Positions 11,093 through 61,265 of a stretch of DNA of 64,000 nucleotides are shown in pieces. The number at the start of each line of letters is the position of its first letter. Positions within the stretch are counted from its first letter, which is position 1. The notes beneath the pieces were generated by a model. The model searched no databases. It was not told the DNA's origin and worked only from the letters and a program-made list of their open reading frames with translations. Made by a program: the position numbers and the translations under genes. Location of the stretch: NCBI GenBank assembly GCA_000146465.1, contig CP001952.1. One strand, written 5' to 3'.

Positions 11093-11111
11093 TAACAGGG
11101 CCTTCCACCGA

Positions 11112-11612: not shown

Positions 11613-11614
11613 TT

Positions 11615-12298: not shown

Positions 12299-12367
12299 TC
12301 AGGGTGGAGGAAAGAGAAATTTATTTGATATAAGAATAGACATATTGATAGTGCAATATAATTTTAT

Positions 12368-12580: not shown

Positions 12581-12652
12581 TTTAGGGTTCGGTATTTTTA
12601 TATTTTAAATAATTCCAAGTAGATAGAACATATTTTACAAGACACTATGTAA

Positions 12653-13381: not shown

Positions 13382-13546
13382 TTCTGGGTCCTGGAGAATA
13401 AACAATTTCGAACAAATTATAAACGTATGTCAATAAGACGTGTATCAAAGAACTTTTTATTTTATACAACAAGCCAATATCAGAATTCTCTTTTTTAGGT
13501 ACAATGTCTTGAGCCAAATATAAAATTTTTAAAACCTAGTCCCAAA

Positions 13547-16621: not shown

Positions 16622-16667
16622 ACCAGCTTGTTGCTTTTAATACACTGTATCCAAAAGGCTCGGACAT

Positions 16668-17231: not shown

Positions 17232-17324
17232 TCCCAAGGGACATCATCTGCATAAGTAAATAAATAGTAACCCTCAAAGCTTTTAAAAGAAGTTTTTAAG
17301 TTAAATTTAATATACTTCAATTAA

Positions 17325-19421: not shown

Positions 19422-19592
19422 GAGGGCTTTTCTTCCTTCAGAAAAAATCTTTTGTATAGAACATTTATTATTAGAAATCCTTCTAAATCTATGATGTAAT
19501 GTAAGGCCGTGGCTTTCCTACAGATCCAGGAAAGATATAAACATAAACAATATCAAACCATAGATCTAAATATTTACTTGGGGCTAATAACA

Positions 19593-21386
19593 ATGTCAAC
19601 AAGAATAGATCCCATACTAGCTGCGTTTATATCTTCCTTTCGTGAACTACCTATTCATGAAAAAGAAGGCAGAATAATAAAAGAGAGACGCAAGATGACT
19701 TCGTCTGCCGAGGCCGAACCACACATAAGGCACTCCAATGTATTGAAGTTCATATATATGAAAATGCTTTCCTATGAAGTAAACGAGATCGACTTCTTAA
19801 ATGCCTGCGAATCAGATATTCTAAGAATAAAGACTGCCGGGTATCTTGGTCTGATGGCCATGGAAAGTGACGAGTATGTTATCATGGCAATAAACACTAT
19901 CATGAAGGACTTGGGAAAAAAGGAAACAAGAAATGACGCATTGACTTCGATTTGCAATCTCAACAATGATGGAATGGCCCTTTCCAATCTCATGGGACAT
20001 GTTTGTCCAAAAGGGAAGGGAGATCCATTCCACAAAAAGGCTCTTGTAGCATTTTTCCGATTGAATCCTGGTGGAAAAATCTCTATTGTAGGTCAAGATC
20101 CATCCGAGGTTTATGTTAAATCCCAGATTCTAATAGATATCTTTGGGAAGACTGGAAAAGTTGATCTGTCTGAAAACGACATATTATTTCTTCTTTCGCT
20201 TTTTATGAAGAGTGATAATCCCTTTCTCCGAATCAAGATTTTACAAGTTTTTGGAATACTCCATTCCAAGAATCAGTTATCTCTGGACAGAGCTTTTCTA
20301 GACACAATCGATGGGGTGATAATCCCTCCTAAAGACAAGGTACGTCCACAGATCGAAATAGCATTGGCCATTGAGGCTGTTGAGTTTCTACTGAAGATTG
20401 GAAAGATCACTCCAAAGGCAGAGGCATTTGTTCTTCGGCTTATAGAGTCACAAAATCCTAACTCAAGATATTTTGGACTCAAGATCGTAAGAAGGTACAA
20501 AATCCATAGAGATATAGCTATAGAATGCTGCATAAAGCTTGGTCTTCACCACGACCAATGCCTTAAAACACTCATCTCTCTTATAACAAGAAACAATCAC
20601 AAAACAATATACAAAAAGAAAGAAGAGATGATATTCTACATGGAGAAGGGAGGAGCAGGCAAAAAAACGGTGAATGATGTATTGGCCACAGTGTTTTCAA
20701 AGCTCTTGCAGTATGTAAAAGACGAACATATGATAAAGATATATCAAGAAGTTCCGGAGATATGCCTGAAAATGCCCTTGGACAAAAACATTCCCAAAGG
20801 TTATATGTTAAAACTATTCAATAGAATCTGTGTGACGGTAAACAGTAGGTATTTTCCTTTGATATACCAACTGCTACAGTCTGGAATGGAAAACGAAGAG
20901 CTTTACACTACAATATTTGAAAGACATCTCAATATTTTATCAGTTAAAAGAAACGGAGGCTGGGAGATCTCCACTTTGATAAGACTACTCGATTGTATGT
21001 TGAACTTCGGATCCTTAACCCATAACCGTAATATACTAATTGCAAAATATAAGGAGATCTTAAAGGAGGAAGATACATCGGATATACTTGACATGTTATT
21101 GAACACAGCATATTTACTCAACACTAAACTTGGAGACTCGATAATCCATGTTGTCTCGGAACATTTTATCTACTTTACTGTTTCCAAGAACTACACCATC
21201 GAGTTTAGGACACCTCCAAGTCTTGAGATAAAACTTCTGGCTGGGAATGGAACGAGCATAGAAAAAGTATATGAAAAGCTTTCTGAAGAAGCTCGGACAA
21301 CCTCTTTTCACATTGAAGAATCCTCCAAGCTGAATCTACAAGTGTTTGTAGGGAATCAGATCCACATATTGAATCTGGAGGTATGA
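19593..21386 (+). CDS. AP complex large subunit (adaptin N-terminal domain protein)
   Basis: IIKERRKMTSSAEAEPHIRHSNVLKFIYMKMLSYEVNEIDFLNACESDILRIKTAGYLGLMAMESDEYVIMAINTIMKDLGKKETRNDALTSICNL fits the adaptin N-terminal consensus (KLxYxxMLGYD...KRIGYL...N.I.KDL). The listed start 19509 is GTG and the first ATG is at 19593. Confidence 0.6.
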   Translation: MSTRIDPILAAFISSFRELPIHEKEGRIIKERRKMTSSAEAEPHIRHSNVLKFIYMKMLSYEVNEIDFLNACESDILRIKTAGYLGLMAMESDEYVIMAINTIMKDLGKKETRNDALTSICNLNNDGMALSNLMGHVCPKGKGDPFHKKALVAFFRLNPGGKISIVGQDPSEVYVKSQILIDIFGKTGKVDLSENDILFLLSLFMKSDNPFLRIKILQVFGILHSKNQLSLDRAFLDTIDGVIIPPKDKVRPQIEIALAIEAVEFLLKIGKITPKAEAFVLRLIESQNPNSRYFGLKIVRRYKIHRDIAIECCIKLGLHHDQCLKTLISLITRNNHKTIYKKKEEMIFYMEKGGAGKKTVNDVLATVFSKLLQYVKDEHMIKIYQEVPEICLKMPLDKNIPKGYMLKLFNRICVTVNSRYFPLIYQLLQSGMENEELYTTIFERHLNILSVKRNGGWEISTLIRLLDCMLNFGSLTHNRNILIAKYKEILKEEDTSDILDMLLNTAYLLNTKLGDSIIHVVSEHFIYFTVSKNYTIEFRTPPSLEIKLLAGNGTSIEKVYEKLSEEARTTSFHIEESSKLNLQVFVGNQIHILNLEV

Positions 21387-21468
21387 GCGGGCATACTAAC
21401 CAAATTTCAAACAAATAGGTTTTCCCAAGATAAAAGGGAAAGATAAGAAACTTTATTAAAGAAAAATA

Positions 21469-22278
21469 CTAATACACGATCCTAAACAGCATCAAAAGCT
21501 CGGAGCCTAGGCTGTGAAGCTCTTCTCCATGAGCATTTTTAATTCTTTCCCTTAAGCTTTGGACTACTTCCTTGGATCTTCTTGGAAGATAGGGACGAAA
21601 CAGATAGTTTTCCTTTATTATCAGGTCCAAAAGGAAATCAAGAGTTATCATTCTTAAATCGTTTGGGAAGAAAAGAGCGTATGGCTTACCTATTCCCTTT
21701 TCCATTATTGTCAGCACTACAGGAAAAAGCTTGTCTCGAATTTGCTCTTTCATCTGTTCATCTTCGTCTGGTCTATTACTGTCTTCGTCAATGTCCATCG
21801 GCTCGACTCCAGTGTAGATCTTTAAAATCTTAAATTTGAGATCTTCATATGCCAGGTCGTGTACAAGAATAGACGCAATGTTGTAGCATTTAGACTTGAG
21901 ATGGAAGGCCTTGTCGTCAGTCAGTATCACAGGATGAACTTGCTTAGATGCAAAGTTCAAAATCTCATCATCGTTGTTCTTTGTGTTCTGTATCAACTTG
22001 GTGGTGTCCACAAGATCCATTGTACTGTCTTTCAATCTTCCCTCTAGCTCGGTTATTGGAGCATTATATACCTTCTCCAGAAATCTTATGGCCTCTCTGG
22101 CCTCCACCTTCTTTTTCTTGTTATAGTCCAACTCTCTTAGGACAACTTTCGATATAGACATAATAACATCTACAGGAAACTCGTCTTCATAGAGTCTCTT
22201 GATTACTTCCAGATGTGATATAAAAACATTTGTGTCTGGAACAATGGAGATCCTCAGCATTAAAGGGTACGGAAACAT
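21469..22278 (-). CDS. PIN-domain protein (putative ribonuclease)
   Basis: N-terminal IVPDTNVFISHLEVIKRL with later acidic residues is PIN-domain-like. Confidence 0.55.
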   Translation of the reverse strand: MFPYPLMLRISIVPDTNVFISHLEVIKRLYEDEFPVDVIMSISKVVLRELDYNKKKKVEAREAIRFLEKVYNAPITELEGRLKDSTMDLVDTTKLIQNTKNNDDEILNFASKQVHPVILTDDKAFHLKSKCYNIASILVHDLAYEDLKFKILKIYTGVEPMDIDEDSNRPDEDEQMKEQIRDKLFPVVLTIMEKGIGKPYALFFPNDLRMITLDFLLDLIIKENYLFRPYLPRRSKEVVQSLRERIKNAHGEELHSLGSELLMLFRIVY

Positions 22279-22315
22279 AAAACAAAGAGTCTTTCGTCTA
22301 TTTTTAAATTATCTT

Positions 22316-23056
22316 TCAAGACTTATCCATAATCTCTTTATATGTTTTTTCTTTGGCTGAGGATGATAGCATACTGTGGAAGCCACAAAAAGGGCATTTC
22401 TCCCATGCAGATCTACACTTCAACATACTGTTGCAATTACTGCATCTAATGACACTCTTGATTTCCTGCCCTGGGTAAAGAAGCTCCATTTCAAGAATAT
22501 GTTCAACCTTCTTGTTAATAGTGGAGGTATCCCCTATTGGCTTTGAGCATATGGGACAAGTGTAAGTCTCTCTTATGAATTCATCAAAGCATCTTTGATG
22601 CAAAGAATGGCCACACCTAAGGAGAACTAGAACCTCCATGCACCCAAGCATATCTTCTGCACATATGGGGCAGTTTCCAGAAGTGGTATTTTCCACGTGA
22701 ATATGGTTTTTTGATCCTGTGGCTATAAGGCATGTCTGACATATATCACAGTGAAAAGCAACTTTAGGATCTCCCTTTCTGCATGCACTACACTTGTCGC
22801 AATGAAATATTTGGTCCCCAGAGCTGTCCCACAGGTTGCACTTGGAGCAGAAGTACTTAGATACGACCGAAAGACACTGCGAACAGGATTGTGTTTTTGG
22901 CTGTAATAGGTTACAGACAGTACATACCATGTGACTAATTTCATATCTGTTCGCCTTATGTTTCTCGGCATTGTCATGGCATAGTCTACATGGATATAGG
23001 TTTAAGCAGCATTCGAATCTAATTAAACAGGCATTTGAATAGTGTTGGCAAGGCAT
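22316..23056 (-). CDS. RCHY1: CHY/RING/zinc-ribbon E3 ubiquitin ligase (Pirh2/RCHY1-like)
   Basis: CHY zinc finger (CQHYSNACLIRFECCLNLYPCRLCHD...), a CTCHY region, RING (CPICAEDM...CGHSLHQRCFDEF...CPICSK) and a C-terminal zinc ribbon. Confidence 0.8.
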   Translation of the reverse strand: MPCQHYSNACLIRFECCLNLYPCRLCHDNAEKHKANRYEISHMVCTVCNLLQPKTQSCSQCLSVVSKYFCSKCNLWDSSGDQIFHCDKCSACRKGDPKVAFHCDICQTCLIATGSKNHIHVENTTSGNCPICAEDMLGCMEVLVLLRCGHSLHQRCFDEFIRETYTCPICSKPIGDTSTINKKVEHILEMELLYPGQEIKSVIRCSNCNSMLKCRSAWEKCPFCGFHSMLSSSAKEKTYKEIMDKS

Positions 23057-24595: not shown

Positions 24596-27500
24596 TCATT
24601 CAATATGAAGTCTAGGAAGAATGTTCATAGATATGAGTTCTTGGAACAGAAGCTTACAAGCATATGGCATCTTTATCTTTGCTGGCTTTGTGTTCTTACA
24701 AGCAACACAGCAGCCCTTGAAGGCTAGTACTCCACACGGTTTGCATACATAGGCTTCAAACATATCCGAAGATATCATTAGTCTTTCTATAATCAGAGAA
24801 GACGCTCCATATCCTATTAAACAATCGCGCTCCATTTCTCCCAGCTTAAGACCTCCGTCTTTGCTTCTACCCTCTGTTGGCTGTCTCGTGAGTATTGCCC
24901 GGGGTCCCCGTGCTCTCATGTGGATCTTGTCTGCTACCATGTGCTTAAGTCTCTGATAAAATACTGGCCCAAAGAATATGTATGCAGTTAAAGGAGCACC
25001 AGTCGTCCCACTTGTAAAACAATCTTTTCCAGAGTAACTGAATCCGTGCTTGGCCAGAAGCTCGCATGTTTGCTCAACTGAGTTTTCTTTGAATGCAGTA
25101 CTATCAAGTATTTGCCCTGACAACACTCCAGCCTTCCCAGAAATAAGCTCTATTATTTTTCCAACAGTCATTCTAGATGGAAATCCATGAGGATTCATAA
25201 TGATATCTGGAGAGATACCCTGATCATTGAACGGCATATCTTCTTGCCCAACAATCAAACCTACAACCCCTTTCTGTCCATGCCTACTGCTGAACTTATC
25301 TCCGATCTCTGGAGGCCTTGTTTGGCGTAGCATAGTTTTTATGAGAATCTGATCCTGAGATTTGGTGATGAGAACCTTATCAATATACGCAGGGTCTCCT
25401 CGATGAACTTTACCTGTGAATTTATACACTCCTTCCACTGGCGACATCTTATTCACATATACAGTCCCATCTCTTATCATCTTTCCAGGCTTTCCCAATC
25501 CATCATCATCTAAGACACTTTCCTTTGGATTTGGCCCGAGGATATCAGACAAACCATTACTGTGCTTTTTCAACAAAGTCGTAATTGTTTTATATACTTC
25601 TACTCTGAAAAGACCTCTTTCAATCGACGTCTTGTTCAAGACAAGAGCATCTTCTATATCGTATCCGGAGTAGCTCATAACAGCGACCATTGCATTTTGT
25701 CCTGCAGGTATTTCATTGTAATTTATAAGATCTAGAATCTTGGTAGACACCATGGGCCGATGAGTGTATGTGAGTTGTAGAATCACAGGATCAAACCTCT
25801 TCTTAACATTCAGGGATATGTGTCCAATGGCCTGCTTTCCCATGGCACATTGGTATGTGTTCCTGGGACTTTGATTGTGATGGGGAAATGGCACTAGACC
25901 AGCTACATATCCTAGAATCGCAAACTCAGAAATCTCAAGATGTGTTGTTTCTTCGACTATGTCTTCAGGCCTAAGCGCCACAAGACAGTCGTTCTCTTCA
26001 TTAACATCAAGGTATTCAACAAAGCCCTCCTCTAAAAGATCAGAAAATGACTTGTACTTGAGATAGCAATCAAAAAAGGATCTCTCGCTTCCCATCTCTA
26101 TTTTCTCTGAAATATTCAAGGCCTCGAGATACTTGTCAACTTGGTTTGAAATTATCATCTGATTTATCCTTCCTTTGTCGATCACAACTAGTGGACGGCA
26201 CACTCGGCCATTATCAGAAGCTACGTGGATAACCTTTTCAGCTGGTACCCTGTAAATGGATACAAACTTTCCAATAAGTCCTTTTCTTCTGTTTAGCCTG
26301 AATTGCTCTATAAGAAAGCCCGCTTTGTTGGTGATCCCAACGATATCCCCGTTTAGAAACACAGAAAACATATCTTTCTGATGTATCTCTCTTGTATAGA
26401 CAGAGTTAATATCAACAACTCCAAGTCTGAACATTAGATCCAGCACTGGTCTTGTATCGGAGTTGGTTGTTATTTCCGCCAGCAAAGCAAGATTCTTCAC
26501 AAGACCACATGACTCTCCTTCGGGTGTGTCAACAGGGCAAAGCATCCCCCAAGATGACGTATGAAGAGATCGAGGACCACTCACCTTCCTTGTTTTTTCA
26601 AAATGAGAGTTTATCTTTGTCATCATCCCCAATGCAGATATGTAGGAATGCCTTGACAAAACGTGCGTTACCCCGCTTCTTTCCATCCTGAACCTCTTTA
26701 GATTCCAGTTTCCTGTTGAAATTGCCCTCGAAAGAGTGGATGTAATCATATTGGCCTGCAGGTTCAGAAATGTCAATGCATCGAACTCTTGTGCTCTGGA
26801 TCTTTTGCTCAATATCTTATCTATCGATTTCTTTAACTCAAAGTTAAATCTTTTGAATGTGTCTTCAAAAAGGATCGATAATAGCTGTCCAGCCAGCTCA
26901 AACCTCTTGTTCCCAACGAAATCTTTATCATCCTCCTTGAGTATGTTGAGTTTTGTTTGTACAAGCCTTCGGATCATTAGTGCTATGTAAATCCCTTTTT
27001 TCCTTAGATTACAACCTTCTGTCTGAACATTTGGCAATACTTTTTCAGACAGTATAGTCAGAACCTCTTCTATTCTATTGTCCTCTGGTTTTAACTTTAT
27101 ATAGTTGCTCATGTAAAGGAGAGCCTGGTCCTTAGTAAACACCTCCTTTGATATACACTCTCCAAAGCTAGGGACTATAATCTCAAAATACTCTTTTCCA
27201 ATGCACTCCGCTATTTCCTTATCCTGTGTCAACCCAAGAGCTTTCATTGCGATTATTGCCGGGATCTCTTCGTTGAACATCGAACTCTTCAAGTAGTAGC
27301 AATCATCCTTGATGGTTACGGACGTCTTGCTCTTGTGTTCATCCGTGGAAGATGTAACAGAAGCAAATAGCCCTTTTGGCCCGGACTCGATAATGATCCT
27401 GTTCTTTGAAAGTTGTTCTTGTATTAATATCACTCTTTCAATTCCTCTAATAATAAAATAGCCTCCAACATCCAACGGACATTCCTGAGATTCTCGGATC

Positions 27501-27928
27501 TTCCTGTCTCTGGTTTTGTTACTTTCTATTATGCCCTTTGCTTCCTTTCTTAGATGGCATCTGCTACTTCGCAGCATCACAGGCATTTTTCCAATGCAAA
27601 TATCCCTTTTAACAATGATTTGTCTGTTTCTGACATACTCTATGTCAACATAGATATTCGCAGAATATGTCATGTCTCTTAGCCTGCACTCTATCGGAAA
27701 CACATCGTAGTTAACCATGTTTTCCTCTATACTTGGCATTCCAACACGAATGTCCAGATATTTGAGATAAAACGTATGATCGATGTCTGAATCGACAATC
27801 TGGTTTGCTCTTACAAGAGCCTTTATTTCATGGTCTACAAAGTAATCGTACGACTCTATATGCTGTCTTACAAGTCCCTTTTCCTTAAAAAAAAGCTTTA
27901 TCAGCTCGAGTCTTTGATCTTCCTTCAT
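24596..27928 (-). CDS. RPC2: DNA-directed RNA polymerase III second-largest subunit (RPC2/Ret1)
   Basis: [64 protein letters not shown] and [15 protein letters not shown]. The GYDIEDA and CAMGKQAIG variants match Pol III Ret1 rather than Rpb2 (GYNQEDS). C-terminal Zn ribbon CKPCG...C..C. Confidence 0.9.
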
Positions 27929-28393: not shown

Positions 28394-28474
28394 TGGTGCA
28401 AGAGGGATTTGAACCCCCGCCTCAATGAGACTGGAGCCTAATTCCAGCGCCTTAGACCGCTCGGCCATTGCACC
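28394..28474 (-). tRNA. tRNA-Leu (anticodon UAG), type II with long variable arm
   Basis: Reverse complement reads GGTGCAATGGCCGAGCGGTCTAAGGCGCTGGAATTAGGCTCCAGTCTCATTGAGGCGGGGGTTCAAATCCCTCTTGCACCA. It has a 7-bp acceptor stem, a Leu-type D arm, anticodon loop ATTAGGC, a long extra arm and a GGTTCAAATCC T-arm. Coordinates ±2 nt. Confidence 0.85.
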
Positions 28475-32428: not shown

Positions 32429-32501
32429 GTGACATTGGCGCAATAGGTAGCGCGCTGGTCTCATAATCCAGAGGTTGCGAGTTCGAGTCTCGCATGTCGC
32501 A
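32429..32501 (+). tRNA. tRNA-Met (anticodon CAU), elongator type
   Basis: GTGACATTGGCGCAATAGGTAGCGCGCTGGTCTCATAATCCAGAGGTTGCGAGTTCGAGTCTCGCATGTCGCA. Acceptor stem with G1:C72 and one G·U pair, D arm GCGC/GCGC, anticodon loop CTCATAA, T-arm GCGAG-TTCGAGT-CTCGC. A U:U pair is predicted at 31:39. Coordinates ±2 nt. Confidence 0.85.
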
Positions 32502-43244: not shown

Positions 43245-44852
43245 TTAATTCAATTTCCGGCAGGATGCAGATATTAAACCAGTTATTAGTGGATGCGGCT
43301 GGTTAGGCCTTGCAGTGAACTCAGGATGGAATTGTACTCCGACAAAAAACGGATGCGATGTAAGCTCAAAGATCTTTGCTGCTCTTCTCTCGTCGCTGAA
43401 TCCTACAAACCTCAGGCCATACGAACATAGTGAGGAAACCTCGGATCGAACAACCTCGAACCGATGTCGGTGCCTCTCTCGGATCTTCTCCGCTCCAGAG
43501 TACAACCTCTTCACAAGTCCGTCCTCAAGCTCCACCTCGTATCCCCCAACTCGCAGTTTCTTATCAACCACTCCGTTCTTGTCGCTGATAAACCTGACAA
43601 CAAGGTTCTTCCCAGACGGGTTAAACTCCTCGGAAGATGCATCCTTCATCCCAAGAACGTTCCTGCACATCTCGATAATCGATAGTTGGTATCCAAGACA
43701 GATCCCAAGAAGAGGAATCCTGTTTTCCCGTGCATACCGGATCGCCGAGATCTTCCCCTCGATCCCCCGTGCTCCAAATCCTCCCGGAATGATAATTCCA
43801 TTGCACTTCTCAAGATCCTCTGTGGTGTACGAGTCTGCATTGATCCATTCAATCTCAACATTCACCCCCACAGACGCCCCAGAGAACCTCAATGCATGCA
43901 CAAGAGACGTGTAGCTGTCAAACTCCGGCGAGTACTTCCCCACTATCCCGATCCTTACTGTGTCCTCGTGCTTCTGCACAAGTCGTTCAAACGTCTCAAG
44001 TATCTCCCGATCCCCCTCCTTCGACGAAATCCCAAGCACCTTGTTCAGCGACTCAACCATTCCGTGCTCTTCAAGGAACTTCGGCACAAGATACACCGAC
44101 TCCAGATTCGGAAGCCCAAACACATTCCCAGGCTCCACCCAGCAGTTCTTCGATATCTTCTCCCGCGTCTCCTTGCTGGGGTCCCGCACTCCCCTGCACA
44201 CAATGATGTCGTAGCTGAGCCCGAATCTCCTGAAGTTCCTGCACCCCATCTGGATACTCTTTGTTTTCTGCTCCCCACTCTCTAGCTCTACAAGATGGTC
44301 TACAGACACAAATGCACAGTTGCTCCTTCCAACAATTCTCTGGAACTTTGCAAAGGCGTCTGTGTATATAGACGACTCGCTCTCTCCAACAGTTCCCCCA
44401 AGCTCGATAATCACCACGTCTGGGATGACCCTACGTCCGCTCTTGAAGTCTTCCACAGGAGTCTCCGCCACCATCTTAATTCTTCTGATAACATCGTCTA
44501 TTGCATGTGGATTAATCTGTAATGTCTTTCCAAGAAAATGACCCTCCTTCTCACGCTTAATTAAATCTTCAAATAATCTTCCACTAGATAGACTGTTTTT
44601 TCTAGAAAGATCAGACATATTAAACCTTTCATAGTTTCCAAAATCCATATCGCATGTATGTCCATCGTCAAGTACATAGACCTCACCATGTTCCCGTGGA
44701 TGGATCTCCCCAGCATTGTAGTTCAAATAAGGATCTATCTTAAAATGAGTAGTGTTGTGCCCTCTTGACTTTAGTAAAACGCCAATGCTACTACTTACTA
44801 TACCTTTTCCAATACCAGAGATAACACTTCCACAAACCATAATATATTTCAT
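43245..44852 (-). CDS. CTPS: CTP synthase
   Basis: MKYIMVCGSVISGIGKGIVSSSIGVLLK... and GATase GICLGYQLSIIE. Full length 535 aa. Confidence 0.95.
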   Translation of the reverse strand: MKYIMVCGSVISGIGKGIVSSSIGVLLKSRGHNTTHFKIDPYLNYNAGEIHPREHGEVYVLDDGHTCDMDFGNYERFNMSDLSRKNSLSSGRLFEDLIKREKEGHFLGKTLQINPHAIDDVIRRIKMVAETPVEDFKSGRRVIPDVVIIELGGTVGESESSIYTDAFAKFQRIVGRSNCAFVSVDHLVELESGEQKTKSIQMGCRNFRRFGLSYDIIVCRGVRDPSKETREKISKNCWVEPGNVFGLPNLESVYLVPKFLEEHGMVESLNKVLGISSKEGDREILETFERLVQKHEDTVRIGIVGKYSPEFDSYTSLVHALRFSGASVGVNVEIEWINADSYTTEDLEKCNGIIIPGGFGARGIEGKISAIRYARENRIPLLGICLGYQLSIIEMCRNVLGMKDASSEEFNPSGKNLVVRFISDKNGVVDKKLRVGGYEVELEDGLVKRLYSGAEKIRERHRHRFEVVRSEVSSLCSYGLRFVGFSDERRAAKIFELTSHPFFVGVQFHPEFTARPNQPHPLITGLISASCRKLN

Positions 44853-44926
44853 TTTTAGGGATGCCTGAGAATTAACTTCTTTGAAGGAATCTAGATATTC
44901 GGATAATTTAATTTTAATTACAAACT

Positions 44927-46546
44927 TTACTTATTTTCAATTTCACTCAATAAAAGTTTTTTGTCTTCAGATTCTTGAAAAACCAACGAGCAGAGAGAAA
45001 TAAACTCTTCTGAGGAGATAAAAAGCTTACCATTTCTATATCCTTCAATCACTTCCGCCCTATTTGAAGATAGCACTTGTTTGTAAGATTTCAACTTCCC
45101 TTGGCTTCCTATAGCTCCTGCAGGAAGGTGGAAGGAGAGATCAAGGATGTAATCAATCAATATTGGAAGGTTTTCAATAGTACTTCTCTTTGCCATTTTC
45201 AATTCCTGGATTTTCTTCATCAAGTTTTCACCAAGCATCTCAAAAAATTGGATTTCAAACAGACTCATATTAATTTCAGGTACAAACAACTCCATGTTTT
45301 CAACAAACTCCACATGCTTTTCTTTAAAATAGAGTTTGAGAGTTACTAAGGGCTCGTCAAGGGCTACATTGATCCTTGATGATTCCTTGATGACGTCAAA
45401 GAATAGTTCCTCTTTTCTTTTGGACAACTCGTCGGCAAGGCAATGCCCAGGATAAACCCTCAAGAAATGCGTTATGTCAGCAAACTCAATAAAATAGCTG
45501 TAAATGGAGGGCTCATATCTCTTCGGATCAAATAGCTTCTTTATCGCTCTATTAATAACTCTTACTCCCTTCTCATGTCTCTTTGACTTCAACTTTCTGA
45601 ATACTTCAAAGCATTTTTGAAATCTTTTATAGCTTGCAGAGATGGATTTTGGCATTCGATTGGAAAGTTCAAAGGTTTTGACGGCCTCCATGTCCCTTGG
45701 TCCCTTTGTCATCTCGATAATTTCCTTCATGACAACATCAAGCTTCCACTCGACAACATTGTGAATGTAAAATTCTGTATCTCGGAAGAAGGCATTGCTT
45801 GCTTCTATCGATTCGTCGGAGAGGTCTTCTTCCACAACTGCATTCTTCATATTGTCCCTTAAAACCCCAAATATCACGTGAGACATCATTTCATACTTCG
45901 AAATCTCCTCTAAACCCATTATAGCTTTTCCTACCAACTCACAGTGGGAAAGATCTCCGGATTGGCCTTTAAATACAAAAAACAGCGACAAGTCATCTTG
46001 AAAGACCTTTATGCCAATAGGCACAATGTTTAGCATATTCTTGTGTACTATTGACCTTAATGAAAAGTAGCATTTTTCTTGTATTTCCATGTATCTGGCT
46101 GAAAGCTGGAAAAGGGTTTCCACATCCTTTCCTATCTTGAAAACCATCGGCCCGTCGCCATGCCCGCTCTCTAGGTCCTCCACCTCCCCGGAGCCACAAG
46201 AGTTAATATATTTGAGAGCAATCGAGTGATTAAGAAATTCCAGCGATTTCTTTAGTACCACATCTCCATCAGCAATCTTAGAAAAAATTGCCTCTAGATC
46301 GCTTATACTTCTGCATTCCTTAGAACCCAAGGAGAGCTTTTCTATATCTTCAAGGATGTTTTGGTATTCATCACCAATCTTCTTTATTTCCTTCTCCAGG
46401 CTTATAGAATCAGTTCTCTTGATCTCCTTCTCTATTCGATCTAATTCCTTCTCTCGCCCAACCTTCTCATCTCGGAGTGAAAGATACCTTCCATAACACT
46501 CGTCAACATCCCTGATTTTGTTGAAGAGTTTGTCTATCTTTTCCAT
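44927..46546 (-). CDS. Hypothetical helical protein, possibly a vesicle-tethering complex subunit
   Basis: 539-aa ORF from an ATG with an N-terminal coiled coil. No motif identified. Confidence 0.4.
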   Translation of the reverse strand: MEKIDKLFNKIRDVDECYGRYLSLRDEKVGREKELDRIEKEIKRTDSISLEKEIKKIGDEYQNILEDIEKLSLGSKECRSISDLEAIFSKIADGDVVLKKSLEFLNHSIALKYINSCGSGEVEDLESGHGDGPMVFKIGKDVETLFQLSARYMEIQEKCYFSLRSIVHKNMLNIVPIGIKVFQDDLSLFFVFKGQSGDLSHCELVGKAIMGLEEISKYEMMSHVIFGVLRDNMKNAVVEEDLSDESIEASNAFFRDTEFYIHNVVEWKLDVVMKEIIEMTKGPRDMEAVKTFELSNRMPKSISASYKRFQKCFEVFRKLKSKRHEKGVRVINRAIKKLFDPKRYEPSIYSYFIEFADITHFLRVYPGHCLADELSKRKEELFFDVIKESSRINVALDEPLVTLKLYFKEKHVEFVENMELFVPEINMSLFEIQFFEMLGENLMKKIQELKMAKRSTIENLPILIDYILDLSFHLPAGAIGSQGKLKSYKQVLSSNRAEVIEGYRNGKLFISSEEFISLCSLVFQESEDKKLLLSEIENK

Positions 46547-46597
46547 CGGAGGGATAAAACCACTATTGCATATTCATCAGATATCCTTGAAGAGAAA

Positions 46598-47212
46598 ATG
46601 GATTTGGATGAAGATGTTTTATTTCTTGGAAACATTCCCGAGAGCTTCAACAACGAGCTTCTAATAGAGATGCTGAGTGTTTTTGGAGAGATTAAGGAGT
46701 TCAAGCGTGGTAAGGATCTAGAAGGGACAGACTCAAAGTGGGTGATTGTAAGTTACTATGAGAAATCATCGATCAGCAATCTCTATTGCAGCCTGCTGAA
46801 CAGAGACCTGGGACAGGGAATGGTGGTTGTTTTCCCGCAAAAAAAGGAATTACAAGCTTGGGAGGTCTCGGACGAGATACTCGGAAGAGTTGACGACATT
46901 GCAAAAAGATATAAAGAGAGACTCAAGAAAGAGGATTGCTTAGAGAAGTTTGTTTCCAGCTATGATTTGTTGTATGGTAGTACAGGAGATGGGCAAGTGT
47001 TTTCTGAAGCACTGTCAAAGTGGCTGGATGAAGAATCGGAAATACGCAGAAGATGCAGAAAGGCCGAGAATGACTTTGAAAGAACTGCAGAAAGGAAACG
47101 ACAGGAAGAATATTATTATCTATCAACTTATGACGATGACAGATCTAATGATTTATTTTATACTGATAGAGTTTCTTGGGCACTTAAAAGAAATAAAGAT
47201 GATGTTAAATAA
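46598..47212 (+). CDS. RRM-domain protein with basic/acidic C-terminal tail
   Basis: LFLGNIPESFNNELLIEMLSVFGEIKEF (RNP2-like) and VIVSYYEKSS. The C-terminus is Arg/Glu-rich. Confidence 0.5.
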   Translation: MDLDEDVLFLGNIPESFNNELLIEMLSVFGEIKEFKRGKDLEGTDSKWVIVSYYEKSSISNLYCSLLNRDLGQGMVVVFPQKKELQAWEVSDEILGRVDDIAKRYKERLKKEDCLEKFVSSYDLLYGSTGDGQVFSEALSKWLDEESEIRRRCRKAENDFERTAERKRQEEYYYLSTYDDDRSNDLFYTDRVSWALKRNKDDVK

Positions 47213-47263
47213 ATTCGGAAGAGTCTGTTGGTAAGGAATTTATTTGTCTCCAAAATTTTGTGA

Positions 47264-47574
47264 ATGGAGGGTAATCTTGAGACAAGGATATCTAGGGCCT
47301 TGGAGAATGAGTTCAAACCTGCAGCCTTAGAGGTTAGGAACACTACTGCCAATCATGTGGCCCATAGGAAGCCCGAAGATGGAAAAGTTCTTGAAACACA
47401 TTTTTACGTCAGGGTGAAGTCTTCGGCATTCAACGGAATGGTAAGTTAATGATCGCCGTATAATTTAAGAGATTTGCAGACAGGCATAGGCTTGTATATA
47501 AGGCACTTGAATTTGCTTTTGAAAAAGGCCTTCATGCAATTGAGATGGATTGCGATTCTGACGTCCAAGAGTGA
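47264..47574 (+). CDS. BolA-like protein, two exons (47264..47440 and 47470..47574) joined across a 29-nt intron
   Basis: Exon 1 ends ...VLETHFYVRVKSSAFNGM. The unspliced ORF stops 2 codons later. After removing GTAAGT...AAG, the frame continues RFADRHRLVYKALEFAFEKGLHAIEM..., which completes the BolA consensus (ETHF.V.IVS..F.G...RHRLVY..L...IHAL). Exon 2 end ±3 nt. Confidence 0.65.
47441..47469 (+). other. Spliceosomal intron (29 nt) of the BolA-like gene: GTAAGTTAATGATCGCCGTATAATTTAAG
   Basis: Canonical GTAAGT 5' splice site, TAATTT branch-like motif 3 nt from the 3' AG, and a length within the microsporidian range. Splicing restores the conserved BolA C-terminus in frame. Confidence 0.6.
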
Positions 47575-47719
47575 CTAGGATTATCTTTCTTTAATTTAAA
47601 TTTAATTTGATTTGATTTAATGGTGCCTTTGTCTTAGAAACTTCAATTTATACCTTTTTGGTAAAAAGAATTTATTCTTTTTTTTGTTTTACTTTAAATA
47701 ATGAACAAGGTTTTTGGCC

Positions 47720-48469
47720 ATGCTTCACCTATTATATCTTGCATTTGCCTTGTGCCATGAAGTTCCTGATGTATGCACTAGTTCTGGGATGATAGCAATC
47801 AACTTTGTAGATGGACCAGTCAGGGGAGTGACCGATAAGGTTCTAAACACTCTGGAAGAGCTTGGCGTGAAAGCTACTTTTTCGTTTACGGTGAACCAGA
47901 AAGCCGTCGGAAATGTAGGGCAGTTGTATAGGAGAGCAGTCAACGAAGGACATACTGTAGGATTGAGAGTCGATCCAAGGATGGATGAGGGATACCAAGA
48001 TATGTCTCAAGAGGCCTTGGAAGATAATATTGACCGGGAGATAGATACAATCGACGGACTCAGTGGAACTGAGGTGAGATATGCGTCTGTGCCCATATCC
48101 AATGGAGAGGTTAGCTCTGAGCTATATACCATCCTTACCCAGAGAGGTGTTCTTCCCCTAGGATATACCTTCTGCCCATATGACTACGACGACCCTATAG
48201 CCGAATTCGAAGCCATGATAGAAGGATCAGATCCCAAACACCATTCCTTCATCATCTTAATGCATGACGGACAGGAGGGAGATACTTCACGCTTGGAGAA
48301 GATGGTGGAGATAGGAGAGAAAAAGGGATATACTTTTACTAACATGGATGAATGTCTTCGAGGCTATAAAGGCTCTCCTGGAGATCCGGAGCTCAATCTC
48401 AGAGGAAAGGGTGCTGCAAGCCTCGCTACGTTCCTCCCTTTCTTCATGCTATTGGGGCGACTTCTCTAA
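47720..48469 (+). CDS. Polysaccharide (chitin) deacetylase-like protein with signal peptide and C-terminal GPI-type hydrophobic tail
   Basis: NodB-type region [26 protein letters not shown]...EGHTVGLRV...IILMHD. N-terminal [14 protein letters not shown] and C-terminal [19 protein letters not shown]. The listed start is TTG and the ATG is at 47720. Confidence 0.8.
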
Positions 48470-55195: not shown

Positions 55196-55244
55196 TTCAG
55201 GGTTTGGATTTCTTTCTTTTAAGCTCTTGGAACTAGCCTAAAGA

Positions 55245-55415
55245 TCACTTATCTTCGAGAAAATCAAATCCAGGATCCTCCAACTGAACCACTAGCTCCT
55301 CAAGAATCGCTTCCAGACTTTCGATGCTCTCCGATATCGATGCCCCGTCTAGCCTTATCCCGCTGTCTAAGCCCCTTATCAGTCTGTTATAAGCTTTCTC
55401 AATATTCTCTTTCAT
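55245..55415 (-). CDS. Unlisted 56-aa acidic helical ORF (MKENIEKAYNRLIRGLDSGIRLDGASISESIESLEAILEELVVQLEDPGFDFLEDK)
   Basis: Found by own translation of the 289-nt spacer between Rpn11 and the next gene. ATG to TGA, 49 nt upstream of the Rpn11 start and on the same strand. It falls below the ORF-track size cut-off. Confidence 0.2.
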   Translation of the reverse strand: MKENIEKAYNRLIRGLDSGIRLDGASISESIESLEAILEELVVQLEDPGFDFLEDK

Positions 55416-55484
55416 TTATTCCAACAAAGTAACAGGGCTCGCCACTACAAGAAAGAAAGAGCTTCACTAGGGTATCTTTCTTTA

Positions 55485-55841
55485 TTACACATTCTTAATA
55501 GGCAGAGAAAACATAATGCCAGAGAGGGTCGTTAATGAAATAATCATCACCCATGCATCTGGTATCAAGCCGTAGTACTTTGTTTCAAAGTCTACTCGAA
55601 ACACCATCTTCTCGGTTTCTCCAAAGTATTGAGTGACATCAACCAATTCGAATCTTCGGGGCTCGTACTCTACAACATCGTATCTGTAGTATCCGGGAAA
55701 GGAGATTTTTAGGGAGTTCCAGGTAGAGGCCCCATGGGAAGCTGATGATATATATGTATTTCCAACCTTAAGTGTGTCGAACGAACTTCTTGATATCTCG
55801 ATGTTGTCTGCAAATACAAAAACTAGAAACAAAAGAAACAT
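55485..55841 (-). CDS. Small secretory-pathway protein: signal peptide, ~80-aa lumenal domain, C-terminal TM
   Basis: The listed ORF runs to 56042 but would overlap the Eaf6 gene. The internal ATG at 55841 gives MFLLFLVFVFADNIEI... (signal peptide) and ...WVMIISLTTLSGIMFSL (TM). Confidence 0.4.
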   Translation of the reverse strand: MFLLFLVFVFADNIEISRSSFDTLKVGNTYISSASHGASTWNSLKISFPGYYRYDVVEYEPRRFELVDVTQYFGETEKMVFRVDFETKYYGLIPDAWVMIISLTTLSGIMFSLPIKNV

Positions 55842-55950
55842 TTTGACTACAGGGCGGGATATTAGCCAAAAATATATTTGCTGTAAAACATTTAGGAAAC
55901 TCCTATGGCAGATTCCCTTGGGCCTTATTCCTTGGATAAACTCCCGGCCC

Positions 55951-56211
55951 ATGAACATCGAGGACACGTCTTTGGATGCGAAGAAAAGATTCAAAGCTCT
56001 TCTTGCAAAAAGAAAGAAACTGAGAAAACAGATTCGAACCATTGAAAGGGAAATGTTTAGGCACGAGACTGTGTATTTGGAAATGACCCAGGGATCTCCC
56101 CTTACAAAGAATGTGGAATATTATGTTTCAAACAGGGCAGAGAAGAAGAAGTATAATGTAGACGACAAAATGAGAATCTTTAATAAAAACTTCCCCAGGA
56201 CCGATCGGTAG
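55951..56211 (+). CDS. EAF6: NuA4 histone acetyltransferase subunit Eaf6 (MEAF6)
   Basis: KKRFKALLAKRKKLRKQIRTIEREMFRHETVYLEMTQGSPL aligns with Eaf6 (L..KR..L...L..LE.QIY..E..YLEDTQ.GNI). First ATG at 55951 within listed ORF 55774..56211. Confidence 0.55.
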   Translation: MNIEDTSLDAKKRFKALLAKRKKLRKQIRTIEREMFRHETVYLEMTQGSPLTKNVEYYVSNRAEKKKYNVDDKMRIFNKNFPRTDR

Positions 56212-56275
56212 AGAAGGCTGTGTTTGCAGAGCTCCCTAGTTTGGTCGAGTAAAAAATTTTCAAGACCCCTTCCAT

Positions 56276-56590
56276 ATGAAAGGAGAGGATCGTATAAGGA
56301 TCTTGAATACCCAGACAATACAAGTGGAGAAGGAAGATCACACCATTATGAATCCGTTAAGGTGGTGTATAAGTAAAAATTTCTATGGAGAGAATGTGGA
56401 GCTCGTGGGGTACACCATCCCACACCCCTCCGACGATGCTTCCAACTTAACCATTCAGTTCTCCAATGAGTCGTCTCAAACACCTCCAAATCTCTTTAAG
56501 AAGATGATGGAGGGCTTGGAGTGTATGGAAGCCATCGGAAGAAAAATGGAAAGTGAGATAGAGAAGTTCGAAGGCAAATTTAATAAATAG
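56276..56590 (+). CDS. RPC19: RNA polymerase I/III shared subunit AC19 (Rpb11-like)
   Basis: EDHTIMNPLRWCISKNFYGENVELVGYTIPHPSDDASNLTIQF matches AC19 (EDHTLGNALRY...VEFCGYSIPHPSE..LNIRIQT). Confidence 0.7.
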   Translation: MKGEDRIRILNTQTIQVEKEDHTIMNPLRWCISKNFYGENVELVGYTIPHPSDDASNLTIQFSNESSQTPPNLFKKMMEGLECMEAIGRKMESEIEKFEGKFNK

Positions 56591-56643
56591 AGGACTTAGG
56601 TGTCATTTGCTTTTAGGCCCAAGGCATGTGCCCTAAGAAAAGC

Positions 56644-57654
56644 CTATTCATTGCATGTGTAGAACAACATTAATGGATATCCACAAACATCTTTCATCTC
56701 CAAAATTTTTTCTACGCCTCCTGCTCCATATCCATGCCAGCCTTCCCCGTCCTTGACATAGCAGTAGCTCATGGTATTTTCTTCTGTTATAAAAGAACAA
56801 AGAGAGAAAGTGTGGCTTCCAAGGCTTATATTCGAACCGTTCAGTATATCGATGCCTCCCTGTTCTTTTACGACAAGTACAAGAACTGGCGGCTTCTTGG
56901 TTATCTTTCTATTTTTAACCTTTAGACTCGAATCAAAGGCCTCTTGGATATTGGAGAATCCTTTTAAAGACACCCTACTCTTTTCAAAAGAGATCTCCTG
57001 AGATTGGCTTCCAGAAACAGCTTTTCCCTGAAATATCTCTACAATTGGAGAATATTCCTTGTAAAGTAGCTTAGGCTTGGCTCCTTGGGTTTTACCCATG
57101 GTACTCCATGTATCCTCCTCAAAGTTGTAGTATTCGCAGAGCTCGTCGTGGATCGCCTGAAGAAGTTCTGAATATATATCTTCGTATACTTTCGAATCTG
57201 ACTCCATTAAAAGATCGCTTGCATTGGTTTTCTTCTCCTCCATCAGCAAGCGAAGAAATTCCGAAATTCTGAACATTATCTGGCATTTTTCTATATCTTC
57301 ACCTTTCTCTCTGAAGTTCAGGATAAAGTTGTAGAAGGGAGGAAGCCTGACAAGACATATCAGTAAGTTGAATATCTTTTCGTCAGACTCCACGTATTCA
57401 AGATCCACAACTCCAATATGCCTTTCCACAAATAGCTTATTTCCTGAGAGTAGGATTTTGTTCCCATTCAGTCTCCCCACAGGCCTCTTTGGAAGCCTAG
57501 GCGGCTGTCTAGTGACAATATTATATTCTTCCTCGGCCGTCATTTCGTTCAAAAAAAAGACACAGGACTCTGGTTTTGTTCTCATTAGTCCGATTCTCAG
57601 GATGTAAATTTTTAAGTTCATTTGAAGAGCTAATGAAATTCTCCCGTAGTACAC
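56644..57654 (-). CDS. Hypothetical protein, weak resemblance to a degenerate ubiquitin C-terminal hydrolase fold
   Basis: 336-aa ORF. The C-terminal PVLVLVVKEQGGIDILNGSNISLGSHTFSLCSFITEENTMSYCYVKDGEGWHGYGAGGVEK loosely resembles the USP His-box region. Uncertain. Confidence 0.4.
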   Translation of the reverse strand: MYYGRISLALQMNLKIYILRIGLMRTKPESCVFFLNEMTAEEEYNIVTRQPPRLPKRPVGRLNGNKILLSGNKLFVERHIGVVDLEYVESDEKIFNLLICLVRLPPFYNFILNFREKGEDIEKCQIMFRISEFLRLLMEEKKTNASDLLMESDSKVYEDIYSELLQAIHDELCEYYNFEEDTWSTMGKTQGAKPKLLYKEYSPIVEIFQGKAVSGSQSQEISFEKSRVSLKGFSNIQEAFDSSLKVKNRKITKKPPVLVLVVKEQGGIDILNGSNISLGSHTFSLCSFITEENTMSYCYVKDGEGWHGYGAGGVEKILEMKDVCGYPLMLFYTCNE

Positions 57655-57687
57655 TTCGATTTAAGAAGGTAAGAGTTTTAATTAGTG

Positions 57688-59493
57688 TTAGGACTGATTC
57701 AAAGATGCAATGATGTCTAGTATTTCTCTTCTGCTCATCACAACAGAAGATGAAATCGACTCCTGGATGCTCAGGTCGAAGTAACTAAACAAGTTCAGGA
57801 TGTGCAGAACTATTGGACTTTTCAATGACAAGCTGTGGAGGTGAATATCAGAGTTCAGATAGTCCCTTGGATTCAATCCAAACACAGCCTTAAAACACCC
57901 CATAATCGACGTCTGTATTCCAAGAAGCTTAAGATAGCTAGAATTGTCGACTCCATTTACATGGACCAGTTGGTTGGACCTTGAATACAGCATAATACTA
58001 TTCTTCCTAAACCCTACTCTGGAAGATGAGAGTCTTCCCAGATTGGTTTTCATCTCCACTCTCTTGACAAGTTTAGCTCCATCCATGCTTATTATGTTAT
58101 TTGGAGAGTAGGTGTATGCATGAATTGTTCCCTTGATGTCGCAACACACCATCGAAAGCTCATTGCCAGTAATAAGAAGTTCTGTAGAGGTTGCATTCTT
58201 AAGAGGCTCGCTAGAGCTTATCAGGTGGAGTCTAATTGGCTTGGACTGGAAGAAAAAGAACGACAAGCCTCTATAAATGTCGGATGCAAGAATGTAGTTT
58301 TTAACCACAGATATAGAGGATGTAAATGTGTGCAAGTCATGGAAACCTATGGGTATTATCCCGCTGCCCCTGTCAATTTTGTAAATCATTATCTTGGTTC
58401 CCAAACATAGTACAATCTTACCACGAACTTCAGAGCATTGGACAATCGATCCCTTAGTCTTTTCAATTCCCAAAACCTTGAGTTTACAGTCTTTGAAAGG
58501 GCTCTCCAACGACGGAACAACAGAAATTATTTCTAGTACATGAAGCCGGCCTTTCGCAGGCCTATCTTCTCCTTCAATGAAGGTTGTGCAAACAAGTAGA
58601 AAAGGGGACTTTCCATAATTTCCCTGCATATCATCCAAAACGAGATACTGGATATCAAAGACATACTCGTTCTCTTCTAATTCATAAGTACTTATATGCT
58701 CGTATTTCTCCGAATACAGGTCGACATAGAACCGATAGGTGTTTACAGGAACTCCACAGTCTTTTCCATTCTTTGGGGAAAACTCAACTTCTTCGCATGA
58801 GGCTACTACCATGTACCGATCTGCATACTCGATGTGCTTTGGTGTTCTAAGAACTGGAATCTTTTTCCCAATAAATCCGCTTCCAAAAACATATCCGTTT
58901 TCAATGCTGGGGACTCTGCAGACCATTAGATAGCCTTTGGAGAGTTGTATCACATCGTCTCCATCCATAGCTATTGAATTTAGAGTGTACTGACTTCTGT
59001 ACAAAAAATGTCCCTTGTCTGTTGGAACCATAAATACGTTGGTTGTTGCTTTTATGAATACCATTGTACCCACATTGTAAAATGCCTTGGTCTCCGGAGA
59101 TAGATTGAAGGCAATGTGTCTTGGAAGATGTATTTTGAAAAAGATTACTTCAGAAGGAAGGGTTTCCCTGAGAAGTGCCTCCAGCCCGAAGGATTCATAT
59201 GCAACCATGTAACCTCCTTTCAATCTGAAGAGCATAAGAATCTTGGTGCCCGTTGCAAGCATGGCCATCTCTATAACGGCTTCATCATCGTTCTTCTCCG
59301 ATAGATCTATAGGTACAGATGTCTCCGATGAAAATCTTATCGCGTATGGAACGCCTCTTATTGAACAAGGAGGAAATTGCCCCATCCGTTTGTCTATGTC
59401 GAAGATGCTCAAAAGATCATCAGAAAGAATAAAAACCTTATTCCCGATATCTGCAAAACATGTAACGTTAGGGATGCAGGTAACCACGGTCAT
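57688..59493 (-). CDS. CFT1: CPSF160/Cft1 (cleavage and polyadenylation specificity factor large subunit), C-terminal part of a split gene
   Basis: C-terminal ...SRREILDIIASLNQS and the preceding helical/beta-propeller region align to the CPSF160 C-terminus. This ORF lies directly downstream of the N-terminal ORF on the same strand. Its reading frame stays open 14 codons upstream of its first ATG. Confidence 0.7.
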   Translation of the reverse strand: MTVVTCIPNVTCFADIGNKVFILSDDLLSIFDIDKRMGQFPPCSIRGVPYAIRFSSETSVPIDLSEKNDDEAVIEMAMLATGTKILMLFRLKGGYMVAYESFGLEALLRETLPSEVIFFKIHLPRHIAFNLSPETKAFYNVGTMVFIKATTNVFMVPTDKGHFLYRSQYTLNSIAMDGDDVIQLSKGYLMVCRVPSIENGYVFGSGFIGKKIPVLRTPKHIEYADRYMVVASCEEVEFSPKNGKDCGVPVNTYRFYVDLYSEKYEHISTYELEENEYVFDIQYLVLDDMQGNYGKSPFLLVCTTFIEGEDRPAKGRLHVLEIISVVPSLESPFKDCKLKVLGIEKTKGSIVQCSEVRGKIVLCLGTKIMIYKIDRGSGIIPIGFHDLHTFTSSISVVKNYILASDIYRGLSFFFFQSKPIRLHLISSSEPLKNATSTELLITGNELSMVCCDIKGTIHAYTYSPNNIISMDGAKLVKRVEMKTNLGRLSSSRVGFRKNSIMLYSRSNQLVHVNGVDNSSYLKLLGIQTSIMGCFKAVFGLNPRDYLNSDIHLHSLSLKSPIVLHILNLFSYFDLSIQESISSSVVMSRREILDIIASLNQS

Positions 59494-59558
59494 CTCCCTA
59501 TCATAAAAAACAAGTCTTTTTTCGGAATCCCTTACTGCAAGAAATAATCCACTACAAA

Positions 59559-61238
59559 TTATTTTTGCCTCTGCCGCTTTGCTAGTAAAGTCTCCTCTAC
59601 CACCTTAAGGTTATGATCCATTCCCAACCAGAAGGTAGGTGTAATCTGAATTATTCCAGTGCCGAACTCCGCAAAAAGTAACGTGTCCATATCTTTAGCA
59701 TATTTTCCATCCACTTCCAAAAGACTCTTTTCAGGCCATTTAAAGACCTTTGTATCCCCTGCTCTACCCAGAATGTAGAAGTCTAAGACCCTTGAACAAT
59801 ACAAATATCTTCTTGTCTTCTGAGACTTCAAGATTTTCAATGGCATAATATTGCTTACAACGCGTACTCCGGGCTCTAGTCCTTCAACAACAAAGACTGC
59901 TTCATTTTCTCTTTTCATCGCCACTTCATTCAAAAATCCGATGTTTGAAATCTCGTCAACTTGATGGAGAGTAAAAGTTTCTCCAGCTCTTGACTCAGAA
60001 CCTTCATTGAAAAGCTTGGCATACTCTTCATCTTGTTTCTGGGTTTCTTGGTCTTTGTTTCCAAACAGTTTAGAATACTCTTCCAGTACACTTCTTTCAG
60101 CCGGGATGACATTTTCTTCTGTCCTTCGCCGGAGGCTCTTTATTTCAAACAACTCCGAGCTGTCGCCTATAGATCCAACAAATAAGAGGTTCTCCACCTC
60201 TCCTATGCAACTGGCTATAGATCCTCTTCTCTCAAACTCCAGAGATGCCCCTATGATTCTTTTTATGTCCATCGATATCTCGAGTCTATATCGATCTCCA
60301 TTTCCATTGAATATCAGGCAGGTGTTTCCTCTCGAAAAGAAATTTACATCAAAAAGAACTACGTCGTTAAGTGCTTTGCCCGCTTCACATGCTTCGGACA
60401 TCCTATTCAAAGGAACCGAGTACGAGCTGCTTGTAGATCTTATTAATATAGAGTTGTGTGATATAAACAGTAGGATGGAACCGGCACATACCACCTTAAA
60501 TGTTTTTGGGGGAACTAGAAACTCGTCGATAGTATGGAATTTTCCTGCACTTAGATCAATCGAAAACACTATGGCATTGTAATTCCTTACAACTGTGTAC
60601 TTCTTAGGAAGCGAATCGTACACCAGACACACAGTGGGAATGGAATAGTTTTCCAGAAAAGTAAAGTCGATTGGATTCTTGATCTTTCCATCGATATCTA
60701 TAAACTTAAAGACCTTTGCGTTGAACATCCCAGGAAACAAAGGAAAGACACTAAAATAACGCTTGTTCATCTGAAACATCCCTAGATCAGTGCCTATTCG
60801 GACATTCCTTATATCTTCGTCTTTGATGTCGAACTCATCCTTTTCGAAAAACTTTAAAGACGTTGTCTTGAATTCGTTTTCCTGAGGATCAAACCTCACA
60901 AGAGAAATCTTTGCCTTATGAAACAGAAAAACTAGACCGTCTTGGTCTGGAGATATCCTATACTTTTCCACCTGGCAAACTCTCTCAAATAGAATATGCT
61001 GCTTCACCAAAACCAGCCCCGAGCCGTACTTCCAGAGTCTTACGATGTTCCCGTTATATGTTAGAAACGAATGTGTCCCGGGTATAAAGAACCCTGCAGA
61101 ACATCCCTCGACGCTGTTCCATGGACTCTCTTGTGAATATAGGTAGTTCATTGGGGTTGCAATTTCCCGGTGCCAAACCCGGTTTTCCCACCGAAGACCA
61201 TATTGCAAGCAAATCTCGCACTGGAAAAAGATGAACAT
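59559..61238 (-). CDS. CFT1: CPSF160/Cft1, N-terminal part of the split gene
   Basis: LVFLFHKAKISLVRFDPQENEFKTTSLKFFEKDEF aligns with CPSF160 [35 protein letters not shown]. The probable true start is MNYLYSQ... The ORF ends at a TAA 65 nt before the next ORF's ATG. Confidence 0.7.
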   Translation of the reverse strand: MFIFFQCEICLQYGLRWENRVWHREIATPMNYLYSQESPWNSVEGCSAGFFIPGTHSFLTYNGNIVRLWKYGSGLVLVKQHILFERVCQVEKYRISPDQDGLVFLFHKAKISLVRFDPQENEFKTTSLKFFEKDEFDIKDEDIRNVRIGTDLGMFQMNKRYFSVFPLFPGMFNAKVFKFIDIDGKIKNPIDFTFLENYSIPTVCLVYDSLPKKYTVVRNYNAIVFSIDLSAGKFHTIDEFLVPPKTFKVVCAGSILLFISHNSILIRSTSSSYSVPLNRMSEACEAGKALNDVVLFDVNFFSRGNTCLIFNGNGDRYRLEISMDIKRIIGASLEFERRGSIASCIGEVENLLFVGSIGDSSELFEIKSLRRRTEENVIPAERSVLEEYSKLFGNKDQETQKQDEEYAKLFNEGSESRAGETFTLHQVDEISNIGFLNEVAMKRENEAVFVVEGLEPGVRVVSNIMPLKILKSQKTRRYLYCSRVLDFYILGRAGDTKVFKWPEKSLLEVDGKYAKDMDTLLFAEFGTGIIQITPTFWLGMDHNLKVVEETLLAKRQRQK

Positions 61239-61265
61239 AGGGGTATAAGTTTAATACAGGCCGGT

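Follow-up and report, generated by a model that had tools for sequence, protein, structure and literature searches.

The question raised by this locus is whether two neighbouring open reading frames (ORFs) on the same strand of a microsporidian chromosome represent two genes or a single gene that has been broken. The window, i.e., the whole stretch of 64,000 nucleotides (nt) that was analysed, corresponds to positions 1-64000 of NC_014425, chromosome XI of Encephalitozoon intestinalis ATCC 50506 in the 2010 assembly GCA_000146465.1. On its minus strand, which carries all features of the gene discussed below, lie an upstream ORF of 559 amino acids (aa) at 59559..61238 (ADM12547.1/XP_003073907.1) and a downstream ORF of 601 aa at 57688..59493 (ADM12546.1/XP_003073906.1), the products of which are both named "pre-mRNA cleavage and polyadenylation specificity factor" in the 2010 record. 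A first-pass annotation had proposed that these two adjacent ORFs are halves of one CPSF160/Cft1 gene parted by a frameshift, and this proposal is borne out by homology, by intact copies of the gene and by its orthologues. We consider it very likely that a single CPSF160/Cft1 gene has been broken by a missing copy of a TGGT unit, most probably through an error in the 2010 consensus.

The assignment to CPSF160/Cft1 holds, with the upstream and downstream ORFs being the N-terminal and C-terminal parts of one homologue. The downstream ORF contains a CPSF_A domain (Pfam PF03178), which belongs to the C-terminal propeller region, at 57781..58731 (residues 255-571 of the 601 aa), with a score of 204.5 bits (cut-off 27; E 3.3e-60). 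In the repaired protein, CPSF_A scored 202.8 bits and was the only Pfam match, and Pfam gave no match to the upstream, N-terminal ORF alone; PF23726 (Beta-prop_RSE1_2nd) appears in the precomputed matches of several orthologues. When searched against solved structures, the downstream ORF matched yeast Cft1 (9e-20) and human CPSF1 (5.8e-19) and no other significant relatives, and the upstream ORF matched residues 75-137 of human CPSF1 weakly (E 1.4e-4). A profile of the orthologues matched CPSF1 (1.7e-41) and Cft1 (2.3e-33) in the PDB and nothing else at E<=1e-3, and it is collinear with CPSF1 residues 74-137, 195-477 and 1052-1419.

The protein thus shares with human CPSF1 and yeast Cft1 a strong CPSF_A match, collinear N- and C-terminal matches, and a predicted secondary structure that is beta-rich with a helical C-terminus. 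However, it is about 20% shorter (1155 aa vs. 1357-1443 aa), as is usual for Encephalitozoon proteins, and its middle propeller has diverged too far to be matched by sequence to the solved structures. DDB1 and SF3B3/Rse1 are paralogous scaffolds from this superfamily, each with three propellers, and would have the overall architecture in common with it, whereas neither DDB1 nor SF3B3 gave a significant match in the solved-structure searches; DDB1 showed weak N-terminal similarity only (E 0.3-0.8), and the C-terminal region matched CPSF1/Cft1 only. Judging from homology, the protein of ~1155 aa would resemble its homologues in having three beta-propellers together with a helical domain at the C-terminus, and would serve as the CPSF160/Cft1 scaffold of the module that recognises the polyadenylation signal within the mRNA 3'-end cleavage and polyadenylation factor. 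The window contains no genes for the CPSF partners WDR33/Pfs2, CPSF30/Yth1 or Fip1.

What, then, separates the two parts? The ORFs lie in different frames (61238 mod 3 = 2; 59493 mod 3 = 0), and translation confirmed both the coordinates and stops given in the first-pass annotation and its statement that the downstream frame extends upstream of its ATG, without a stop, to a TAA. The upstream ORF ends in CAAAAATAA, i.e., CGG CAG AGG CAA AAA TAA, with the premature TAA at 59559..59561. Before its ATG, the downstream frame has 38 open codons, back to the TAA at 59607..59605 in the context CCTTAAGGTGG; by itself, an open stretch of 38 codons would arise by chance with P ~0.08. A +1/-2 indel within the overlap 59562..59604 would mechanically join the two ORFs, and the earlier reading had accordingly placed a single indel in an interval of ~45 nt, with an A5 run as the suspected site.

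The exact indel was located by comparison with intact isolates. Window positions 54700-64000 (9.3 kb) were compared by BLASTN with the corresponding loci of the E. intestinalis isolate assemblies GCA_051312775.1 and GCA_051312795.1. Against GCA_051312795.1, the sole difference in the 9.3 kb is a 4-nt gap; against GCA_051312775.1, the same 4-nt gap is accompanied by one single-nucleotide polymorphism (SNP) at 57413, outside the gene. Both isolates read CTT AAG GTG GTT GGT AGA GGA GAC (L K V V G R G D), whereas the window reads CTTAAGG-TGGT-AGAGGAGAC, i.e., AAGG-TGGT-AGAGG vs. AAGG-TGGT-TGGT-AGAGG in these two later isolates. One unit of a TGGT tandem duplication is therefore gone, leaving a single TGGT at 59602..59599 in place of the TGGTTGGT of the other E. 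intestinalis assemblies compared. The lesion falls inside the interval of ~45 nt that had been proposed. However, it is not in the A5 run at 59562..59566, which is ruled out as the lesion, being identical in the intact assemblies. The TAA at 59605..59607, which bounds the downstream frame on the upstream side of the indel, is out of frame in the intact gene, where these bases belong to CTT AAG. Once the 4 nt are restored at 59599..59602, the corrected coding sequence spans 57688..61151 and encodes 1155 aa.

Apart from the 4-nt indel, there are zero substitutions in the 3.5-kb gene relative to the two isolates; with no substitutions and no further lesions, the gene therefore shows no signs of the decay by which a pseudogene is recognised. 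The E. intestinalis assemblies are almost identical in general, the TGGT indel being one of only two differences in the ~29 kb compared. We also note that the heptamer TGGTTGG occurs twice in the intact assemblies, 27 nt apart (TTCTGGTTGGGAATGG and AAGGTGGTTGGTAGAGG; window 59625..59631 and 59599..59604), a small local repeat that could, speculatively, have played a part in mis-assembly or slippage.

A search with the conceptual fusion of the two ORFs returned 11 clusters, all microsporidian, and a 1155-aa E. intestinalis isolate protein is 99% identical to the fusion over 98% of its length. The 90% cluster to which the window ORFs belong also holds the full-length E. intestinalis protein KAL7344555.1 (1155 aa) together with three full-length E. 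intestinalis proteins of 1184 aa, namely KAL7346530.1, KAL7348467.1 and UTX46403.1. These full-length models carry TGGTTGGT and hence read through, and the two isolate loci are identical to the window at the DNA level across the gene except for the TGGT unit; the intact state is thus seen in two E. intestinalis isolate assemblies as DNA and in two other assemblies as protein. An exact-protein look-up of the 601-aa ORF in the contig index gave no match.

The strain of origin of UTX46403.1 bears on the cause of the lesion. According to a 2025 announcement of three new isolates, ATCC 50506 was the only E. intestinalis sequenced before them (PMC12697097), and this strain was re-sequenced from telomere to telomere in 2023 (PMC10158259). 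Because only ATCC 50506 and the three isolates have been sequenced and the KAL accessions account for the isolates, we infer that UTX46403.1 comes from the re-sequenced ATCC 50506. The 270,484-bp sequence that carries it, compared with 236,244 bp in the 2010 record, fits this origin. The telomere-to-telomere paper contains no discussion of frameshifts or of corrections to the 2010 assembly (PMC10158259).

Orthologous genomes were also checked for a continuous frame. In E. hellem, E. romaleae, E. cuniculi, Ordospora pajunii, O. colligata and further relatives, the orthologues are single proteins of 1115-1186 aa encoded by single genes, and no split relative was found. Ten orthologues align without gaps through the junction. 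Thirty-six codons at 59494..59601, which encode G519-E554 of the intact protein in the downstream frame (GRGDFTSKAAEAKIICSGLFLAVRDSEKRLVFYDRE), are orphaned in the 2010 record, i.e., they belong to neither annotated ORF; 25 of these 36 residues are identical in E. cuniculi, and 14-19 of the 36 in the E. hellem, E. romaleae and O. colligata orthologues compared. The last 12 residues of the upstream ORF, an out-of-frame tail (EETLLAKRQRQK) that precedes its premature stop, match the orthologues at only 1-2 of 12 positions. The gene order in E. hellem and O. colligata is MSP - LSM - 288 aa - CDP-alcohol phosphatidyltransferase - CPSF160 - 313 aa - RNA_pol_L_2 - NuA4 - ... - Rpn11, with one CPSF160 gene per syntenic locus. 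Gap-free orthologues, conserved orphaned residues and single syntenic genes together indicate that the continuous frame is ancestral and that the window therefore carries a deletion.

The position of the break within the protein was examined in an AlphaFold2 model that was computed for the repaired protein with an 11-sequence alignment. The model is poor overall, with a mean predicted local distance difference test score (pLDDT) of 48.9 and a predicted template-modelling score of 0.36; it is beta-rich with a helical tail at 1071-1153, and it is confident in residues ~490-720 and bits of the C-terminus only, with pLDDT 85-91 in 520-610. The indel falls at V518/G519, inside the predicted strand 517-522, and the 36 orphaned residues span the predicted strands 517-522, 527-533, 538-543 and 548-551, i.e., approximately one blade of the middle propeller. 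The annotated start of the downstream ORF is M555 of the intact 1155-aa protein, an internal methionine that is invariant among the orthologues. The break thus does not coincide with a domain boundary, and this speaks against a functional arrangement of two polypeptides.

Where the intact protein begins differs between the models. The first-pass annotation had started the upstream ORF at 61238, as do the 559-aa RefSeq model and the 1184-aa models, whereas the 1155-aa model uses the ATG at 61151. The latter corresponds to the start MNYLYSQE, which is invariant in 11 sequences, and the true start is thus most likely the ATG at 61151 rather than that at 61238, which gives the repaired protein its length of 1155 aa. 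The 29-residue extension from 61238 (MFIFFQCEICLQYG...) is absent from most orthologues and is probably not translated. A start at 61238 would leave only 27 nt between CPSF160 and the CDP-alcohol phosphatidyltransferase gene upstream of it. The coordinates listed for the locus by MicroAnnot imply the start at 61151 as well (PMC10815200).

Taken together, the split is best explained as follows. The 2010 record lacks one unit of a 4-nt tandem duplication (TGGTTGGT reduced to TGGT) within a single CPSF160/Cft1 gene, the missing 4 nt shift the frame so that the upstream frame runs into the TAA 13 codons on, and gene callers then restarted at the next in-frame ATG, 36 codons 3' of the lesion. In the organism itself, the product is most likely one protein of ~1155 aa. 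As to why the 4 nt are missing, we regard a consensus error in the 2010 assembly as the likely cause, with good though not complete confidence, because the same strain (by the reasoning given above for UTX46403.1) is intact on re-sequencing, the gene is otherwise unchanged, and the 2010 assembly was an early short-read one. Its input was paired Illumina GAIIx reads of 31 bp, joined de novo in Velvet (k=19, 40x), and finishing was manual, by polymerase chain reaction and Sanger sequencing (PMC4355639). Of the causes put forward in the first-pass annotation, an assembly error fits best, as the other assemblies are intact and the orthologues are single genes, whereas programmed frameshifting is without support.

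The locus was already known from the literature as a problematic one and is resolved in later assemblies. Table S2 of MicroAnnot lists "NC_014425 57688 61151" under "Frameshift, sequence error or pseudogene", one of 11 loci so flagged in the 2010 assembly (PMC10815200). The coordinates of this entry are exactly those of the present locus; however, the paper names neither which of the three causes applies nor the position of the lesion, which is here pinned to the TGGT unit.

Several considerations weigh against a consensus error. A 4-nt loss is atypical for Illumina chemistry, replication slippage in vivo would likewise drop one unit of a tandem duplication, and in assembled sequences, as opposed to reads, a consensus error and a genuine deletion in the 2010 DNA preparation look alike; the telomere-to-telomere assembly, moreover, is represented here by its protein and not by its DNA. 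It is conceivable, if improbable, that a real and very recent 4-nt deletion was present in the spore stock sequenced in 2010, such that the record faithfully shows a null or crippled CPSF160 allele, which may have been fixed in a sub-line or may have been one allele, or a minority population, picked by the assembler. The tandem TGGTTGGT lends itself naturally to replication slippage, short-read chemistry seldom deletes 4 nt, and the identity of the remainder of the gene to the intact copies is as expected of a very young lesion. However, UTX46403.1, presumably from the same strain, is full-length, as are the proteins of all three other isolates. In two genera the gene is strongly conserved, and the loss of about one propeller blade of strands should be very deleterious in the homozygous state; in addition, 11 flagged loci genome-wide in the 2010 assembly are typical of consensus errors. 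We think it very unlikely that a single-TGGT allele was truly in the 2010 stock and was tolerated, either via a second intact copy (diploidy or a mixed population) or via low-level frameshifting or reinitiation. If true, this would be a natural case of a minimal eukaryotic genome with a frameshift in an essential gene.

Explanations in which the single TGGT is part of a working gene fare worse. Programmed recoding, i.e., a -1 ribosomal frameshift or transcriptional slippage that restores the full-length protein within the overlap 59562..59604, might be suggested by the ~14 codons over which the frames overlap and by the A-rich stretch beside the stop, where the upstream frame ends CAA AAA TAA. 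However, no X XXY YYZ heptamer is present on the minus strand in 59550..59621, an A5 run is too short for efficient transcriptional slippage, and the other E. intestinalis assemblies and all orthologues have a continuous frame, so the arrangement is not conserved; the recoded product would also exchange the conserved GRGDFTSKAAEAK for unrelated residues, and we regard recoding as highly improbable. A gene fission in which two polypeptides are translated separately and come together again as a functional CPSF160 would agree with the ATG starts of both ORFs and with their separate RefSeq proteins, but is scarcely credible given a break inside a beta-strand of the middle propeller, the 36 conserved residues that would go, and a downstream start at M555, which is invariant in the alignment. 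The 65-nt spacer is mostly conserved coding sequence rather than an intergenic region of promoter size, and no relative is split. Encephalitozoon has a few very short introns, and a GT...AG stretch (GTAGTGGATTATTTCTTGCAG) lies just past the premature stop; that such a spliceosomal intron resolves the frame problem is nonetheless next to impossible, as removal of this 21-nt stretch leaves the frame unchanged, the candidate bases encode conserved residues (IICSGLFLAV...) in the intact assemblies, and the TGGT unit is the sole difference from the intact genes.

If, as we favour, the record contains a consensus error, its effect is on the databases. The 2010 RefSeq/GenBank record splits an essential, conserved gene into XP_003073907.1 and XP_003073906.1, both of which propagate into UniRef. 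Studies of orthology, gene counts and domains in the "smallest eukaryotic genome" can be led astray by such split proteins, and the later full-length models are preferable for them; new biology would follow only if the deletion proves real in reads.

Several further observations concern the remainder of the window. The SNP at 57413 is a minus-strand G in the window and an A in GCA_051312775.1, which turns HIGVV into HIEVV in the uncharacterised 313-aa gene that lies directly downstream of CPSF160; GCA_051312795.1 agrees with the window at this position. At the other end, window 1-19984 is 100% identical to an E. intestinalis isolate contig, which runs 2.6 kb further (its positions 19985..22631) into subtelomeric genes of the DUF2463/DUF1609 families. 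The window therefore begins at a truncated end of the 2010 chromosome XI, and DUF2463 and HD-domain genes lie at 774..3081. Two transfer RNA genes, tRNA-Leu (anticodon tag) at 28394..28474 on the minus strand and tRNA-Met (cat) at 32429..32501 on the plus strand, are the sole RNA matches in the window at the Rfam gathering level. The exact product of a 1110-aa ORF at 24596..27928 (minus strand) is absent from the contig index, unlike the products of the neighbouring genes. A different annotated start is probably the reason, rather than a sequence difference, although the ORF could be a further place at which the 2010 record and later assemblies differ. Finally, a 3.2-kb Logan contig from an unrelated public run, ERR13302946, is 100% identical to window 44529..47750, and the run therefore contains E. 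intestinalis DNA.

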